A stretch of 64,000 bases of DNA. It comes from Chloroflexota bacterium (GTDB lineage Bacteria; Chloroflexota; Dehalococcoidia; Lucifugimonadales; UBA3495). This document shows positions 34,268-60,191 of the stretch, piece after piece. The notes under the pieces are model-generated. The model worked only from the letters and a program-made list of their open reading frames with translations, made no database searches and was not told the DNA's origin. How positions within the stretch are numbered: position 1 is the first letter of the stretch; every line of letters starts with the position of its first letter. The position numbers and the translations under genes are program-made. The DNA lies in the NCBI GenBank assembly GCA_028875655.1, contig JAPPCX010000112.1, positions 141 through 64,140 of the forward strand. Direction: 5' to 3'.

Positions 34268-34639
34268 ATGTCAATGTTCAAGGTGGACATCGGCGTCGGC
34301 AACCTGGACGGCGGCGACCTGGCTCCGGTTCGACCCATAGTGGACACCGGCGCGGCACATTCCATGTTGCCCGAGTCGCTGCTGACCCGGCTGGGCATTG
34401 CGCCCCGCCGTACTCTCAGCTTCATCCTGGCCGACGGCAGCCCGGCAATCTACGGTTTCGGGTTCGCTCGGCTCAATATTGACGGAGAGGAATGTCCCTG
34501 CCCGGTCATCTTCGGGCCGGAGAGCAACCAACTGCTGGGCGCGTCCACCCTGGAGATTTTCAACCTGGTGGTTGACCCGGCCGGGGAACGCCTGTTGCCC
34601 GCCGAATGGCTCTCGCTGGGCTGGGGCGGGGATTTATAG
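34268..34639 (+). CDS. retropepsin-like (clan AA) aspartic protease, single domain
   Basis: IVDTGAAHSMLP (catalytic D-T-G) and C-terminal LLGASTLEIF (the ILG-type dimer-interface motif). 123 aa. Confidence 0.7.
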   Translation: MSMFKVDIGVGNLDGGDLAPVRPIVDTGAAHSMLPESLLTRLGIAPRRTLSFILADGSPAIYGFGFARLNIDGEECPCPVIFGPESNQLLGASTLEIFNLVVDPAGERLLPAEWLSLGWGGDL

Positions 34640-34661: not shown

Positions 34662-34919
34662 ATGGACTACAACGTTTTTATGCGCCGCCAACTGGCGCAA
34701 GACCAACGTATGAATACCCTGATGCTGGAACAGATTTACTGCAATCTGGACGGCCGGGCATACGACTCCGACGACTTGGAATATACCAGCGAGCAACTGA
34801 TTGACCGTGCCATGACGCAGGCGGCCGATTACTATGACATTGCAGGGGGCCAGGGGGACGTCCGCCGCGAAATTGGCATGATGCTCAGCGCAGCGGCCCC
34901 GGTGTCAGGGGCGGACTGA
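34662..34919 (+). CDS. hypothetical small protein
   Basis: 85 aa from an internal ATG of track ORF 34398..34919. Starts 22 nt after the protease stop. No motif recognised. Confidence 0.3.
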   Translation: MDYNVFMRRQLAQDQRMNTLMLEQIYCNLDGRAYDSDDLEYTSEQLIDRAMTQAADYYDIAGGQGDVRREIGMMLSAAAPVSGAD

Positions 34920-34925
34920 CTGATT

Positions 34926-35222
34926 TCACAAGTTTCTGGCAGCCGGCGCCGGCATGGACTCTCCGGCCTTTTCGCGCCGCACGTGTTCGCGCAAAACCAG
35001 ATTGATGTGCGTCTGGCAGTCTATATCGGTTTTGGTATTGGACTTGAACCAGGCGATTACGTCGGCATCGAGGTCCAGGGTAATCCGCTGCTTAGTCAGC
35101 CGGTAAATGACGCCGCGCTTAGCGTTGGACCAGTCCGTAACTTCGGGGATGTCGCTGGTGTCGATCTCGTCTTCGGACATTGCAGCCAGGGCGGCGAGTT
35201 CGGCCTTTTGCTGGTCGGTCAT
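34926..35222 (-). CDS. BrnA-type antitoxin-like protein
   Basis: EDEIDTSDIPEVTDWSNAKRG...ITLDLDADVIAWFKSN...QTHINLVLREHV matches the BrnA_antitoxin pattern. The ATG at 35222 is preferred over the track start at 35384. Confidence 0.7.
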   Translation of the reverse strand: MTDQQKAELAALAAMSEDEIDTSDIPEVTDWSNAKRGVIYRLTKQRITLDLDADVIAWFKSNTKTDIDCQTHINLVLREHVRREKAGESMPAPAARNL

Positions 35223-35226
35223 ACTG

Positions 35227-35529
35227 CTAGCTCTCAGGCGGGAGCGGGATTCGGGAGCCAATGCTGCGAGCCTCATAAAGCATTCGCTGAGTTTCTTCCC
35301 AATACGCATCGTTTTTCCGCCAAGCCCCGGCAGTGGAACGCAACAGCCGCTGGCGTTCCTCATCGGATAGCGGAAGCGGAGCATCGAAGGTGATCAGGTA
35401 TTCGTCGCCCTCGCGCAGCTCAACCGGCTCCAACGGCACCAGCGCGCCGTTCACGCAACGGGCTTTTATGGTTTTGAGCGTGGTGGGCCTCTCATGGGTT
35501 TGAGGCTGTATGGATAGCGGCATTGCCAT
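35227..35529 (-). CDS. DUF104 (AF2212-like) antitoxin-like protein
   Basis: IKARCVNGALVPLEPVELREGDEYLITF is the DUF104 beta-hairpin signature. The C-terminal AGAWRKNDAYWEE tail is common in this family. Confidence 0.6.
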   Translation of the reverse strand: MAMPLSIQPQTHERPTTLKTIKARCVNGALVPLEPVELREGDEYLITFDAPLPLSDEERQRLLRSTAGAWRKNDAYWEETQRMLYEARSIGSRIPLPPES

Positions 35530-55358: not shown

Positions 55359-56624
55359 ATGAAATCGCAGCGATTCTTCTACGGTTGGGTAATCGTGGCC
55401 ACCATGTTCGCCGTCAACTTTTCCACGATGGCGACGGGGACGCTCAACTATGGCCTGTTCGTGCTGCCGATGCAGAGCGAACTGGGCCTGTCAAGGGCCA
55501 CCTTCGGGTGGATGCAGACGACGCGGCGACTTTCGGCGGGCGCGCTGAGCTTCGCGGTGGGCTGGCTGATCGACCGCTATGGGCCCCGGGTGTATATCCC
55601 GGTGGCGGCCCTGATGATCGGCGGCTGCCTGATACTGGTGGGAATGAGCAGCCATGCGTGGCAGTTCGTCCTGCTGTTCGCGCTGGTGGGTGTTTCGGGA
55701 CTGGCCGCGCCCAACGGGCTCGTCACGTCAGTGCCGGTAGCCAAGTGGTTCGTGCGGAAACGCGGCCGCGCGCTGGCGCTGTCAACCGCCGGACTGGGCA
55801 TCAGCGGCATCGTATTCCTGCCCGTCACCCAATGGCTGATCGACGGCTACGGCTGGCGCGCTTCGTGGCAGATACTGGCGCTGTTGTTCATGGTCATATC
55901 CATTCCGGCGTCGGCCCTGTTCTTGCGTCGCCAGCCCGAGGACATGGGCCTGCGCGTGGACGGCGACCCTCCGGACGCGCCGGCCGACGCCGCGCCCCCT
56001 TCGGAACCGCGGCGGTCAACCGGAGACGAGCCGGTCTGGACGGTTCGCCAGGCCTTTCGCACGGCGACGATGTGGAAGCTGGTGGCCGTGTTCTCGTTGG
56101 CCGGCGTGGCCCAGGGCGGAGCCAGCTTTCACCGCATCCCGTACTTCGTGGAGAAAGCCTACGACCCGCTGCTGGTGTCGTGGTCCTTCGCGGCTGACGC
56201 CGGCGGAGCGGCGGCGTTGGCGCTGGTGTCCGGCTGGCTGGCCGACCGCATCCCGATCCGGTTCCTGGCGGCGGTTTCGTTCTCGGGATTCATAGTTGCC
56301 ATCCTGCTGATGATCTACGTGGCGTCGGCGGAGATGATGTTCCTGTCCACCATCGTTTTTGGCTGCTCCGTGGGCGTCGGGATGATTGTGCATACGTACA
56401 TCTTCGCCGCATACTACGGGCGGGCCTTCCTAGGGACGATACGGGGCATCGTGATGCCCATCAACCTGCTGAGCGCGGGGCTGGGCGCGCCGCTGGTGGG
56501 CTACCTGCACGATTACGCAGGGTCGTACCTGCCGGCGTGGTGGACGCTGCTGTTCATCTACGGCGCTTGCTCCGCGCTGATGCTGACGGCGCTGCCGCCG
56601 GGTCGGGCCGACGCTACCGGGTAA
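55359..56624 (+). CDS. MFS transporter (oxalate/formate antiporter-like)
   Basis: FFYGWVIVATMF N-terminus, LIDRYGPR loop, 12 TM pattern. Confidence 0.85.
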   Translation: MKSQRFFYGWVIVATMFAVNFSTMATGTLNYGLFVLPMQSELGLSRATFGWMQTTRRLSAGALSFAVGWLIDRYGPRVYIPVAALMIGGCLILVGMSSHAWQFVLLFALVGVSGLAAPNGLVTSVPVAKWFVRKRGRALALSTAGLGISGIVFLPVTQWLIDGYGWRASWQILALLFMVISIPASALFLRRQPEDMGLRVDGDPPDAPADAAPPSEPRRSTGDEPVWTVRQAFRTATMWKLVAVFSLAGVAQGGASFHRIPYFVEKAYDPLLVSWSFAADAGGAAALALVSGWLADRIPIRFLAAVSFSGFIVAILLMIYVASAEMMFLSTIVFGCSVGVGMIVHTYIFAAYYGRAFLGTIRGIVMPINLLSAGLGAPLVGYLHDYAGSYLPAWWTLLFIYGACSALMLTALPPGRADATG

Positions 56625-56633
56625 TGCTACAAT
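56625..56633 (+). promoter_or_regulatory. extended -10 (TGCTACAAT) upstream of cassette 1
   Basis: Lies 38 nt before the ATG at 56671. Purine-rich AGAGGGGGG SD. Confidence 0.3.
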
Positions 56634-56670
56634 CAAACCGTGCAGTGAACAGACCCAAGAGGGGGGCGAT

Positions 56671-57243
56671 ATGATAGCTCAACCCGATGCCGACCATCCT
56701 TACCCTCCTAACCCGATAGCCGATGCGGCCTGGGAAATCTATGAAACCGAGCTCCGACAGAAGCTGGAGCCCGAACATTACGGCGAATTGGTCTTCATCG
56801 ACACCAAGTCCCACGACTACGAAATTGAGGACGAGCATGGCGGAGCCTGGGTGCACCTGACCGACCGGCATCCCGACGCCATTTGCTATGCCTATCGCAT
56901 CGGCTACCCGATCTGGTGGACGCGAGAGGTGCTTCCCGGCGATGAATTGCTGGCGGATGCCGAGGCAAATCCGCTTCCCAAACCGTCGCCGGAAGAAATG
57001 GCCCAACGTAAACAGCGGGCTGATCAGGCCCGAGCCTTATTCAAAAAAATCTGCTCCCAATTATCTGCCGGCGAAAGAGGCAAGGTCATAGCCCTGGACC
57101 TGGAAACGGGCGACTATGAAATCGACAATGACGGCATGAGAGCCGCAGTTCATCTCCGAGACCGACATCCGGGTGCTTACGTGTACTCGTTCATGATCGG
57201 ACGCGAACGAAGGTGGACCGGATTGAAGAGGCGGTCAGAATGA
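56671..57243 (+). CDS. two-domain DUF5678-like protein (cassette 1 partner)
   Basis: Internal duplication: YGELVFIDTKSHDYEIEDEHGGAWVHLTDRHPDAICYAYRIG and GKVIALDLETGDYEIDNDGMRAAVHLRDRHPGAYVYSFMIG. The same module occurs in the 58515 gene. Family name is from pattern memory only. Confidence 0.6.
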   Translation: MIAQPDADHPYPPNPIADAAWEIYETELRQKLEPEHYGELVFIDTKSHDYEIEDEHGGAWVHLTDRHPDAICYAYRIGYPIWWTREVLPGDELLADAEANPLPKPSPEEMAQRKQRADQARALFKKICSQLSAGERGKVIALDLETGDYEIDNDGMRAAVHLRDRHPGAYVYSFMIGRERRWTGLKRRSE

Positions 57244-57620
57244 CTCAAGGGCAGGTTAATGGAGCTTATCTTGCAGACATCCCAATCGACATTTTTGATT
57301 CACGCCGACGGTTACATCGGATCAGGGCAGTCATTGACTCTGGATTTGACGGTGAGTTGGTACTGCCCGGAAGCATCATAAGGGGTTTGGGATTACTCCG
57401 TATTGGCGAAGATGAGTTGTACCTACCCAATGGACAGCCGTTTTTGTTCAATGCCTACTCTGGAACCATATTCTGGTTCAACCGTGAGCGTGACATCACA
57501 GTGTTGGAGTCGGAAACCTATTCACTGGTCGGAAAGTTTTTGCTCGCCGAGAGCCATATCGAAATCGACTTGACTCCCGGCGGAACCGTGACCGTTACGG
57601 AATTGCCGGCGACGTTTTGA
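57240..57620 (+). CDS. retropepsin-like aspartic protease, DTGF (AF_0612/TIGR03698-like) type
   Basis: RAVIDSGFDGELVLP catalytic loop, LVGKFLL near the C-terminus. The ATG overlaps the upstream TGA (ATGA). Confidence 0.7.
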   Translation: MTQGQVNGAYLADIPIDIFDSRRRLHRIRAVIDSGFDGELVLPGSIIRGLGLLRIGEDELYLPNGQPFLFNAYSGTIFWFNRERDITVLESETYSLVGKFLLAESHIEIDLTPGGTVTVTELPATF

Positions 57621-57647
57621 AAACATCGTCAGTTGCGAGAGGGCGAA

Positions 57648-58418
57648 CTACCGCCCCTGCCCTCGGTCCAGGTAGTCCTGGGCGGAGCCGAGTCCCTCCA
57701 GCGCCAGCCCGTAGCCCAGCAGGTCGTGCAGTTCTCCCCGCAGCTTCTGGGTGAGCAGTACGCGGGAATAGCGCAGTATCAGGCGCGGCTGGCGGGCCAG
57801 ATCACGGGCCAGTTCCCAGGCGCGCGGCAGCAGTTTGTCCGACGGCAGCACCTCTGCGACCAGTCCCAGCTCCTGCGCTTTGGCGGCATCCAACGACTGC
57901 CCGGTGAGGAGGAAGTAGCGGCCCCGGTTGATGCCCAGCAGCAGCGGGTAGATGATGTGCATACCGTCGCCCGGAGTGAGGCCGCTCATGAAGTGGCCGG
58001 AGTCCTGGAATGTGGTGTGCGGCGCGGCCAGCACGATGTCGCTCATCAACGGCAGCTCTGAGTGCCGTAACGCCGGGCCGTTGATGGCGGCGATGATTGG
58101 CACCTCGATGTTGAGCAGGTTGCCCAGGAGATGCTTGCCCTCCCAGTAGGTAGCGTCCCACTGTTCAGGGGTGCGGCGCGGCACGGTGTCGCTGCTGCCG
58201 GCCGGTCCGGTGAACCCATCGCCGGCGCCGGTCATGATGATGACCTTGTTCTCCACGTCGGTACCGATGGTATGAAAAACCTCCGGTAGTTCGGAGTGCG
58301 GGCCGGCGCCCCATTGCAGGGTATCGCCGTCGCTGTGCAGGGTCATCTGCAAGATGCCGTCTTCGCGCTCGAACCGCGCGTACTGGAATCGGTCCTTATA
58401 GTCTTCAAGCCGGGCCAT
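57648..58418 (-). CDS. enoyl-CoA hydratase/isomerase family
   Basis: VIIMTGAGDGFTG, INGPALRHSELPLMSDIVLAA. The ATG at 58418 follows AAGGAG. Confidence 0.85.
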   Translation of the reverse strand: MARLEDYKDRFQYARFEREDGILQMTLHSDGDTLQWGAGPHSELPEVFHTIGTDVENKVIIMTGAGDGFTGPAGSSDTVPRRTPEQWDATYWEGKHLLGNLLNIEVPIIAAINGPALRHSELPLMSDIVLAAPHTTFQDSGHFMSGLTPGDGMHIIYPLLLGINRGRYFLLTGQSLDAAKAQELGLVAEVLPSDKLLPRAWELARDLARQPRLILRYSRVLLTQKLRGELHDLLGYGLALEGLGSAQDYLDRGQGR

Positions 58419-58454
58419 TGCTTTGCTCCTTTCCGTCAATGTGGTTGGCGTCAA

Positions 58455-58460
58455 GTATAA
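58455..58460 (+). promoter_or_regulatory. -10 box TATAAT upstream of cassette 2
   Basis: Consensus hexamer 55 nt before the ATG at 58515. Confidence 0.3.
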
Positions 58461-58514
58461 TCAAAATGTCCGGCGGGAATGTCCAAAGGCACAACTATCG
58501 TAAGCGGAGGAATC

Positions 58515-58787
58515 ATGACCACGACCGAGCAGGGCCGGAGTAAGGATTCGCTACGGGCCGAAGCATTTTACAATGAGGAGCTGCGCGACAGCCTGGAGCC
58601 TGCCGAAAACGGCAAGTTCATCGTAATCGACGCCAGGTCAAGCGACTACGAGGTGCATGCCGACTTAATCTTCGCATACGTTCACCTACGTGATAGGCGC
58701 CCTGACGGGGAACTGTACACCTTTCGCGTTGGCGACAGCGAACGAGAGCGGTCAGTGCTTCACGGCAAGCGGATGACGCATAAGTGA
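58515..58787 (+). CDS. single-domain DUF5678-like protein (cassette 2 partner)
   Basis: GKFIVIDARSSDYEVHADLIFAYVHLRDRRPDGELYTFRVG. The ATG at 58515 follows GGAGG. The track start is 58479. Confidence 0.6.
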   Translation: MTTTEQGRSKDSLRAEAFYNEELRDSLEPAENGKFIVIDARSSDYEVHADLIFAYVHLRDRRPDGELYTFRVGDSERERSVLHGKRMTHK

Positions 58788-59161
58788 TGATTATCGGGCG
58801 CGTCAACGAAAATTATGAGGCCGTGATCCCAATCGCGCTTCCCGATTTGCCAACTCGCGAGTTGCACCATTTTTCGGCTGTGATCGACACCGGGTTCCAA
58901 GGTTATTTGATGCTGCCACGCGCAGTTGTTCAGCAGTTGGGGTTGATGGTAATCGATACCAGGGACTTGGTGATTGGGAATGAAGAAACGTATCGGTTTG
59001 ATTTGTGCGCCGCGGTTATTCTCTGGGAAGATGAACCCATCCCTATCCCCATACTGGTCTCCGAAACCCAAACCCTCGTCGGCGCCCGCCTGCTGGCCGG
59101 CTACTATCTCACCGCCGCCATGATTCCCGGCGGCCGGGTAACTCTCACCCAACTTCCCTGA
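58784..59161 (+). CDS. retropepsin-like aspartic protease, DTGF type (paralogue)
   Basis: SAVIDTGFQGYLMLP, LVGARLL. The GTG at 58784 or the ATG at 58787 overlaps the upstream TGA (GTGATG). Confidence 0.75.
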   Translation: MMIIGRVNENYEAVIPIALPDLPTRELHHFSAVIDTGFQGYLMLPRAVVQQLGLMVIDTRDLVIGNEETYRFDLCAAVILWEDEPIPIPILVSETQTLVGARLLAGYYLTAAMIPGGRVTLTQLP

Positions 59162-59189
59162 CCCCAATCTCACCTTCCGGACGACGCGC

Positions 59190-60191
59190 ATGACCAGTTC
59201 CAACATCAACATTGGGCCACAATACCTGGAGGGCGCTGCGGCGTCGGACGTCGCGCCGCTGGACGCGCGGCCCCGGACGATGTTTCGCGCGCCGTTCTGC
59301 GCCAACCTTGACGAACTGGACGCCGACGTGGCCTTCATCGGGATGCCCTTTGACCAGGGCACTTTCGGGAGGCCGGGAGCGCGCTACGGCCCGGACGCCC
59401 TGCGGGACGCGCCGCGAGCGTATTCCTACCTGGACCCCTTCGGGCAGGGCAAGGACGCGGAGGGGTTTTTCGACGCCGACGCCGGCGACGAGCTGCTGCG
59501 CGGCGTCACCATGGCCGACTGCGGCAACGTGACGGTGGCACCGTCGGACGTGCTGCACAACTTCGAGCGGCTGGCCGGCGTGGTGCGGAGGGTCGCGGAA
59601 CGGGGCGCGATGCCGGTGATATTGGGAGGCGACCACGCCGTCACGTTTCCGGCGGTGGCGGGGCTGGCGCAGTTCGCGCCGCTGGACATCGTGCACTTCG
59701 ACGCGCACCTGGACTACACACACCACTACCACGGAGCCATGCTGACCCACGGCAGCCCCATCCGGCGGTGCTACGAGCTGGAGCACGTGGGCAACATCAC
59801 GTCCGTGGGCATCCGCTCGGTGCGACGGGAGCCTTACGAGGAGGCCGTGAGTCACGGCAACGGCATCATCACGCTGCGGCAGTTCCGCGAGTTGGGGCCG
59901 GAGGCGGTGGCGGAGAGTATCCCCGTCGGCTCCAACCTGTACGTCACCTTCGACGTGGACGCGCTGGACCCGATCCAGGCGCCGGGAACCGGCACGCCGG
60001 AGGTTGGCGGGCTGTTCTACGACGAAGCCCGCCGCTGCCTGGAGACGCTGGTGCGCCGTTCCAACCTGGTCGCGTTTGACGTGGTGGAAGTCGCGCCGCC
60101 GTATGACGTTTCGCAGTTGACGGTACAGGTGGCGGCGCGACTGATCATGGACATCCTCGCGGCGCGGTTCCCTAGTCGCCGCGCAGGATGA
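59190..60191 (+). CDS. arginase/agmatinase-family ureohydrolase
   Basis: ILGGDHAVTF, HFDAHLDY, TFDVDALDP, FDVVEVAPPYD (Mn-binding motifs). Confidence 0.85.
   Translation: MTSSNINIGPQYLEGAAASDVAPLDARPRTMFRAPFCANLDELDADVAFIGMPFDQGTFGRPGARYGPDALRDAPRAYSYLDPFGQGKDAEGFFDADAGDELLRGVTMADCGNVTVAPSDVLHNFERLAGVVRRVAERGAMPVILGGDHAVTFPAVAGLAQFAPLDIVHFDAHLDYTHHYHGAMLTHGSPIRRCYELEHVGNITSVGIRSVRREPYEEAVSHGNGIITLRQFRELGPEAVAESIPVGSNLYVTFDVDALDPIQAPGTGTPEVGGLFYDEARRCLETLVRRSNLVAFDVVEVAPPYDVSQLTVQVAARLIMDILAARFPSRRAG

Follow-up and report, generated by a model that had tools for sequence, protein, structure and literature searches.

The retropepsin fold, in which a homodimer forms one active site, is found in the bacterial enzymes APRc of Rickettsia (PDB: 5c9b), which is membrane-anchored, and RimB and RloA of Pseudomonas. 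RimB and RloA work with proteins of their own operons, and RloA proteins are secreted (PMC12239564). Of the bacterial clan AA enzymes, "only a few" have been characterised (PMC12239564), and of the prokaryotic single-domain clan AA peptidases, or pSNCAPs, "little is known" (PMC2642776). Here we analyse two paralogous two-gene cassettes, each encoding a small partner protein and, overlapping it, a single-domain retropepsin-like aspartic protease, in 64,000 nucleotides (nt) of DNA from a member of the Chloroflexota (Dehalococcoidia; assembly GCA_028875655.1, contig JAPPCX010000112.1, positions 141 to 64,140, forward strand); this whole stretch is referred to as the window. We show that the cassettes are hypervariable, dispensable islands undergoing allele replacement in a conserved backbone, which is a new finding, and that they decay asymmetrically, the protease being lost and the partner kept. 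Tentatively, and with a confidence that falls a little short of calling it probable, we read each cassette as an accessory, translationally coupled toxin-antitoxin (TA)-like or conflict/defence module in which the protease would be the effector and the partner would neutralise it.

Like the TIGR03698/COG5550-type pSNCAPs, the window proteases are about 120 amino acids (aa) long and contain one retropepsin domain with a D-T/S-G-F loop and no signal peptide. APRc, RimB and RloA have the same retropepsin fold as these proteases and likewise a DTG active site, but differ in localisation and operon partners; the partner of RimB is an ATP-grasp ligase, and none of the three is paired with the small partner family described here. 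In layout the cassettes resemble type II TA systems such as ParDE and RelBE, with which they share two small genes, the presumed neutraliser first, a 4-nt overlap, accessory status, several copies, allele turnover, an effector gene that decays first, and orphan neutralisers that persist. Unlike those systems, the cassette partner has no recognisable DNA-binding domain or operator, and no TA or defence model matches; to our knowledge, no known TA toxin is an aspartic protease. The sequences suggest a TA-like accessory module with a new class of effector and a new family of neutraliser, its membership among type II TA systems being putative. The cassettes and the genes between and beyond them are arranged as follows.

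56659-56666, + strand: Shine-Dalgarno (SD) sequence of the cassette 1 partner gene, GAGGGGGG
56671-57243, + strand: cassette 1 partner, 190 aa, isoelectric point (pI) 5.2, tandem duplication of a partner module of about 75 aa
56701-56922 and 56992-57219, + strand: modules A and B of the cassette 1 partner (partner-family hidden Markov model (HMM), E 1e-26 and 2e-22)
57240-57620, + strand: cassette 1 protease, 126 aa, pI 4.7, retropepsin-like aspartic protease with D-S-G-F and LVG motifs
57648-58454, - strand: enoyl-CoA hydratase/crotonase (ECH) gene between the cassettes (PF00378, E 3.6e-23)
58506-58511, + strand: SD sequence of the cassette 2 partner gene, GGAGGA
58515-58787, + strand: cassette 2 partner, 90 aa, pI 5.8, one module
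58784-59161, + strand: cassette 2 protease, pI 4.6, retropepsin-like aspartic protease with D-T-G-F and LVG motifs
59190-60191, + strand: arginase-family gene, 28 nt past the cassette 2 protease and on the same strand

The four open reading frames (ORFs) lie where the original prediction, which was made from the DNA alone, had placed them, and the paralogy it proposed is borne out: the two proteases are 41% identical (E 6e-29), and the cassette 2 partner aligns with each half of the cassette 1 partner (E 8e-16 and 3e-12). The two halves of the cassette 1 partner also align with one another (37% identity, E 4e-14), so this protein is, by alignment, a tandem duplication, which the original prediction did not state, and the module is present three times in the window. 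In cassette 1 the start of the protease gene overlaps the stop of the partner gene (ATGA, 57240-57243). The GTGATG junction of cassette 2 offers two candidate starts, GTG at 58784 (125 aa) and ATG at 58787 (124 aa); as homologues are 124 aa long and begin MI.G, the ATG, with a TGATG overlap of 1 nt, is more likely to be used. Each cassette is a compact, co-oriented bicistronic operon, as is typical of type II TA systems.

The pairing recurs in other genomes. A partner-centred scan of metagenome contigs from many environments returned 80 loci, 76 of which have enough downstream sequence to judge. In 63 of these 76 the partner is immediately followed, in the same orientation, by a protease-HMM match; the remaining 13 (about 17%) are orphan partners followed by unrelated genes. 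The gene order within pairs is constant, the partner being upstream of the protease, and 43 of 62 junctions have a 4-nt overlap (ATGA in 40, GTGA in three). The pair occurs in Dehalococcoidia, Poribacteria, and Nostocales, and its neighbouring genes are wholly different between lineages. Searches by tblastn with a protease query and, separately, with a distant partner query led to the same eight plasmids of Nostoc, Trichormus, Tolypothrix and Microchaete. Four of these Nostocales plasmids are conjugative, and the 4-nt overlap recurs on the eight. On both pCC7120alpha and pANSO36B the partner is a "hypothetical protein" of 90 aa, and its gene is overlapped by 4 nt by that of the "clan AA aspartic protease". 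On one of these two plasmids it adjoins ParD/ParE-type genes, with a methyltransferase gene close by; on the other it is close to a RelE/ParE-type toxin gene and a helicase gene. The partners encoded there match the partner-family profile (hhalign E 4e-21 and 1e-21), and the proteases score 71.7 and 78.3 bits with TIGR03698 (clan_AA_DTGF), above its curated cutoff of 57.35 bits. On an Oscillatoria plasmid the partner is an orphan. The original prediction had named a lack of conserved adjacency in other genomes as an observation that would refute it, and on these counts adjacency is the rule. It had also taken the pair to be without an experimentally defined function in bacteria; literature searches found nothing on the pair, and no searchable paper connects TA biology, or a small protein encoded upstream, with a retropepsin-like protease.

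A metagenomic genome (loci L023/L024, 1841-3635) carries cassettes in a row within an AAA...GFO_IDH backbone: an orphan partner (93 aa) is followed by an unrelated 85-aa ORF overlapping a 142-aa Asp_protease_2 (PF13650) gene, and then by a partner (89 aa) and protease (122 aa) pair. This arrangement suggests that other retropepsin subfamilies have small upstream partners of their own.

Relatives of the window share the gene order lactamase_B, MFS, cassette 1 (where present), ECH on the opposite strand, cassette 2, and arginase family. The ECH gene is a conserved backbone gene that provides context and lies outside the module. Comparison of the window with twelve relatives gave the following amino acid identities and synonymous divergences (dS).

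ECH (flank): 88-97% identity, dS 0.3-0.9
Arginase-family gene (flank): 81-96% identity, dS 0.4-1.1
Partner 2: 47-93% identity, dS saturated or >1.8 except in the closest relative
Protease 2: 46-93% identity, dS saturated or >1.2 except in the two closest relatives

When the closest relative is set aside, the other eleven are 47-70% identical to the window in partner 2 and 46-81% in protease 2. That closest relative (L009), whose flanks are 84-91% identical at the DNA level, lacks cassette 1 and has 54 nt in place of about 1,050 nt; cassette 1 is missing from L002 and L006 too. In L015 the MFS and ECH genes are 91-92% identical to those of the window at the DNA level, yet within the two cassettes only the final 80-110 nt of each protease gene can be aligned. 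The divergence extends to the intergenic regions that precede the cassettes (43-53% DNA identity, compared with 87-92% for the flanks). The cassettes cluster by position and not by architecture, with several deep allele classes per position; this rules out the idea that a tandem-partner cassette switched position between genomes. Tandem partners instead arose independently, in cassette 1 of the window and L004 and in cassette 2 of L013, L015, and L016. Two or three cassettes are present at some loci, and together with the allele replacement and the eight plasmids this gives the accessory, patchy, multi-copy, and mobile distribution expected of type II TA systems.

The 3' ends of the two protease genes (57541-57620 and 59054-59161) retain about 89% DNA identity in relatives with otherwise unalignable cassettes, and are candidate recombination breakpoints for allele replacement. 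Some Dehalococcoidia relatives (L109, 1-2887; L107, 2244-4894) have three protease genes around the ECH gene or an arrangement that is reversed compared with the window; the reversed arrangement has a 192-aa tandem partner in cassette 2 and a single partner in cassette 1. We also considered and rejected an integron-cassette origin, as only 27-28 nt follow the protease genes, which leaves no room for attC, and the cassettes flank an oppositely oriented backbone gene.

The composition of the cassettes sets them apart from their neighbourhood. The original prediction judged the protease genes to be AT-richer than their surroundings, and this holds for all four cassette genes: their GC content is 0.50-0.57, compared with 0.63-0.69 in five neighbouring genes, and their GC content at third codon positions is 0.55-0.69, compared with 0.83-0.89. 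The TA-like reading draws on this foreign codon composition, on the dispensability of the cassettes, and on the turnover of their alleles.

Decay of the cassettes falls on one gene. The protease is frameshifted or interrupted beside an intact partner in L005, L014, L017, L018/L019, L035, L040, L045/L046, and L064. If the protease is harmful, loss of the effector while the neutraliser is kept is what would be expected, and we count this asymmetry in favour of a TA-like module. The same observation bears on a reversal of roles, in which the small partner would be harmful and the protease would be an antidote that destroys it. In its favour, TA families with the toxin gene first do exist (HigBA and HicAB are generally known examples). 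However, partners remain intact where the protease is frameshifted or absent; with the partner as the toxin, this state would be lethal or under strong counter-selection, and we consider the reversal highly improbable.

The downstream proteins are single-domain and retropepsin-like, as the original prediction proposed. Its HMM check gave a divided answer: both match TIGR03698 significantly (46.8 bits, E 2.9e-12 for 57240-57620; 53.7 bits, E 2.2e-14 for 58784-59161) but score below the curated cutoff, so they are divergent relatives just outside it, although plasmid proteases with the same partner family lie above it. A Pfam scan gave no match for either. The catalytic loops VIDSGFDGELVLP and VIDTGFQGYLMLP that had been pointed out are present (VIDSGF in cassette 1, VIDTGF in cassette 2) and contain, in a hydrophobic setting, the Asp-Thr/Ser-Gly motif of clan AA retropepsin-like peptidases. 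D35 and G37 do not vary among 25 protease relatives, in which T36 is conserved to at least 90%, and in the metagenome loci 60 of the 62 partner-linked proteases have DTG or DSG. The C-terminal hydrophobic-hydrophobic-Gly motif is also present (SLVGKFLLA and TLVGARLLA); in the same 25 relatives L98 and L104-A105 are invariant, while G100 is Gly in most and Ser in a minority.

An AlphaFold2 model of the cassette 2 protease (pLDDT, the predicted local distance difference test score, 93.8; predicted template modelling score 0.84) has a single-domain, beta-barrel retropepsin fold. Its top Foldseek matches in the PDB are APRc (5c9b), the RVP domain of Ddi1, and the proteases of foamy virus, human T-cell leukaemia virus 1 (HTLV-1), feline immunodeficiency virus (FIV), human immunodeficiency virus 1 (HIV-1), and equine infectious anaemia virus (EIAV), all with a probability of 1.00, the best E value being only 3e-4 and sequence identities 16-18%. 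A sequence-profile search of PDB sequences returned nothing credible for the protease family. Given that each window protease has one domain with one DTG-type motif, that the model includes strands at both termini, and that retropepsins behave in this way, these proteases would homodimerise to form one active site with pepstatin-sensitive activity. The invariant Asp and Gly, the near-universal DTG or DSG, and the modelled fold together make the protease look active.

Both genes are under purifying selection: in comparison with the closest relative, dN/dS (the ratio of nonsynonymous to synonymous divergence) of partner 2 is 0.09 and that of protease 2 is 0.11. The fold held in common with retroviral proteases and a GC content below that of the surroundings could be taken to mean that the cassettes are chance ORFs or decaying retroelement remnants with no current function. 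We give this practically no credence: it is already contradicted by the selection and conservation data, namely dN/dS near 0.1 for both genes, a partner family of 1,830 clusters, and a catalytic motif that is intact in nearly all proteases, and no reverse transcriptase or integrase was found among the genes called in the sampled loci.

The partner is a member of a large family without an existing model. An exhaustive profile search with the partner (clusters being represented at 50% identity, E <= 1e-3) found those 1,830 clusters, most of which have members of about 90 aa, and two or three modules are present in 37 of the 150 best clusters. Across phyla, G33, Y19, D39, E46, P63, R71, and G73 are invariant or nearly so. 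Scans against Pfam, NCBIfam, PADLOC, and PHROG assigned the window partners to no family. The cassette 2 partner, as modelled by AlphaFold2 (pLDDT 75.5), contains a helix-strand-strand-helix-strand arrangement followed by a low-confidence C-terminal tail; a fold search of this model against the PDB gave no match, and comparison of the partner profile with PDB sequences gave nothing credible.

The original prediction called the partners DUF5678-like, a label that HMM searches do not confirm. With the Pfam model (PF18929; gathering threshold 23.2 bits) the window partners have no match at E <= 1, and neither the three window modules nor 86 family members have one at E <= 0.1. Two weak hints connect the families, both of which are small alpha/beta modules of similar size. 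A distant homologue, P0075, has a sub-threshold DUF5678 match (20.4 bits, E 4.5e-4), and the best match of the partner model in the BFVD fold database is a DUF5678 protein of Pandoravirus (E 0.052, probability 0.98), a weak match with template modelling scores of 0.53/0.57 and a root-mean-square deviation of 3.2 over 78 columns. Membership of Pfam DUF5678 is rejected at the HMM level, the score being under the gathering threshold, and a relationship suggested by these hints would be remote at most.

In P0075 (313 aa, from the representative library) two partner modules are fused to a retropepsin domain that is matched by TIGR03698 (E 1.2e-8) and by the protease HMM (E 4e-18). The sub-threshold DUF5678 match of P0075 falls in the second module, and no other sequence gave one. 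A second protein of that library, P0154 (218 aa), combines a partner module with a C-terminal WapI-like immunity domain (PF24716, 27.3 bits, cutoff 27); this single case hints that the partner module keeps company with immunity or neutraliser domains.

Recurrent tandem partners, with two modules for a two-fold symmetric enzyme, and the fusions P0075 and P0154 point to a physical link between partner and protease. Between the window and L004, identity is 92% for module A of the tandem partner but 52% for module B and 49% for the protease, so the protease-proximal module co-diverges with the protease, which we count in favour of the TA-like reading. The same architectures could also be read as those of a dedicated substrate or pro-protein that the protease cleaves, for example in the tandem linker or the C-terminal tail, so that an active fragment or peptide is set free. 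Co-translation at a fixed ratio, the low-confidence tail of the partner model, and the hypervariability of partner sequences would fit such a precursor, and tandem or triple modules and a module-module-protease fusion resemble a polyprotein or zymogen layout. Against it, the partner is a conserved folded module with a near-invariant core across phyla, which does not resemble a leader/core precursor; the sampled loci show no conserved neighbouring genes for export or modification; and intact partners persist without a protease at the orphan loci. We regard the substrate role as rather improbable.

A more serious contender, although still an unlikely one, is a non-toxic regulated-proteolysis unit, in which the protease would be a cytoplasmic enzyme with a specific task and the partner, as its adaptor, chaperone, or assembly factor, would bring it substrates or stabilise it, much as RimB acts with RimK in Pseudomonas. 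Tight translational coupling, conserved gene order, and purifying selection on both genes agree with it, as do the constant positions beside metabolic genes (ECH and arginase family) in Dehalococcoidia; moreover, the bacterial retropepsin-like enzymes that have been characterised work together with proteins from their own operons (PMC12239564). A dedicated cellular task is harder to reconcile with cassettes that are dispensable and variable among close relatives, with multiple paralogous copies per locus, and with frequent protease frameshifts beside an intact partner. Neither the foreign codon composition, nor the cyanobacterial plasmid pairs beside ParDE-type or RelE-type genes, nor the wholly different neighbours between lineages fit it well.

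On the TA-like reading, the downstream gene would encode the effector, a cytoplasmic, single-domain retropepsin-like aspartic protease that, by analogy with retropepsins, would form a homodimer with one active site and would be potentially harmful when free. The upstream gene would supply a small acidic partner at a fixed ratio to the protease through the start/stop overlap. One partner module would bind each protease monomer and render it inactive, and a tandem two-module partner such as that of cassette 1 would span the dimer. We infer the binding of partner to protease, the inhibition, the toxicity of the free protease, the stoichiometry, and a trigger for release. The presence of the pair on plasmids beside other TA genes is a further reason for preferring this reading, and the TA interpretation of the original prediction gains circumstantial support from hypervariability, presence/absence polymorphism, and protease-only decay.

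Several observations weigh against it. No DNA-binding domain was recognised in the partner by Pfam and NCBIfam searches, and no inverted-repeat operator was found upstream of either cassette, so the autoregulatory feature of classic type II systems is missing; the partner may have a cryptic DNA-binding surface. Both proteins are acidic (pI 4.6-5.8), unlike the usual pattern of acidic antitoxin and basic toxin. PADLOC, Pfam, and NCBIfam searches gave no TA or defence match; in PADLOC-DB 2.0 the cassette 1 protease has only an insignificant 13.9-bit match to a generic "protease" model, and the partners have none. A search of viral contigs found no relatives of the partner. The retention of the same two chromosomal positions across many Dehalococcoidia is less typical of freely mobile TA loci. 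A partner lies upstream of every protease of this family encountered in the loci examined, but the protease-centred sample is small and phylogenetically narrow (a scan with a narrow alignment recovered only nine orthologous Dehalococcoidia loci), so that the apparent lack of solo proteases is a weak argument. Finally, P0075 could be a true fusion, or it could reflect an indel or sequencing error at an ATGA junction.

We know of no aspartic protease of the retropepsin-like class that has been shown to act as a bacterial toxin. A stronger proposal, that the pair constitutes a new and widespread TA or abortive-infection family with a cytoplasmic, homodimeric retropepsin effector, a new and remotely DUF5678-like neutraliser acting as one module per monomer, and hypervariable alleles at fixed chromosomal slots that reflect continuing genetic conflict and cognate-pair specificity, is possible, and we would not call it probable.

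A same-strand MFS gene ends 46 nt before cassette 1, and the two -10-like strings proposed in the original prediction do exist at the following positions.

56625-56633, + strand: candidate cassette 1 promoter, extended -10-like string TGCTACAAT, between the MFS gene and cassette 1 (46 nt)
58456-58461, + strand: candidate cassette 2 promoter, TATAAT, within the 60 nt that separate cassette 2 from the divergently oriented ECH gene

The TATAAT lies one base from the position first given for it. The claim that each cassette has its own promoter is not supported to the same extent: a two-hexamer consensus promoter scan called neither string and did not perform above shuffled sequences, so a promoter of its own is only a candidate feature for each cassette. 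A consensus terminator scan was likewise not above shuffles, and Rfam gave no match in 56300-59500. The position of the arginase-family gene downstream of cassette 2 is constant in all relatives examined, and read-through transcription from cassette 2 into it is possible.

The window also encodes a third retropepsin-like ORF (34268-34639, + strand; 123 aa), which has a DTGA motif and belongs to a different subfamily. It matches gag-asp_proteas (33.9 bits) and Asp_protease_2 (31.3 bits) above their cutoffs and TIGR03698 with only 34.3 bits. No partner-family gene lies alongside it; a possible 85-aa ORF (about 34662-34919, + strand) follows. Two small antitoxin-type genes, at 34926-35384 and 35227-35529 on the - strand, match BrnA_antitoxin (PF14384, 35 bits) and AF2212-like (PF01954, 21.9 bits, cutoff 21.6), respectively, so the window contains other TA-type genes about 22 kb from the cassettes.

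Although single-domain retropepsin-like proteases are abundant in prokaryotes, a role is known for almost none of them. The present analysis ties one clade of them to a partner family that had never been modelled and that spans Chloroflexota, Cyanobacteriota, and Poribacteria with at least 1,830 clusters, and in populations the pair behaves like a conflict module. If the protease is a toxin restrained by its partner, aspartic proteases would join the repertoire of TA and defence effectors, and the partner would be a natural protein inhibitor of the retropepsin fold.

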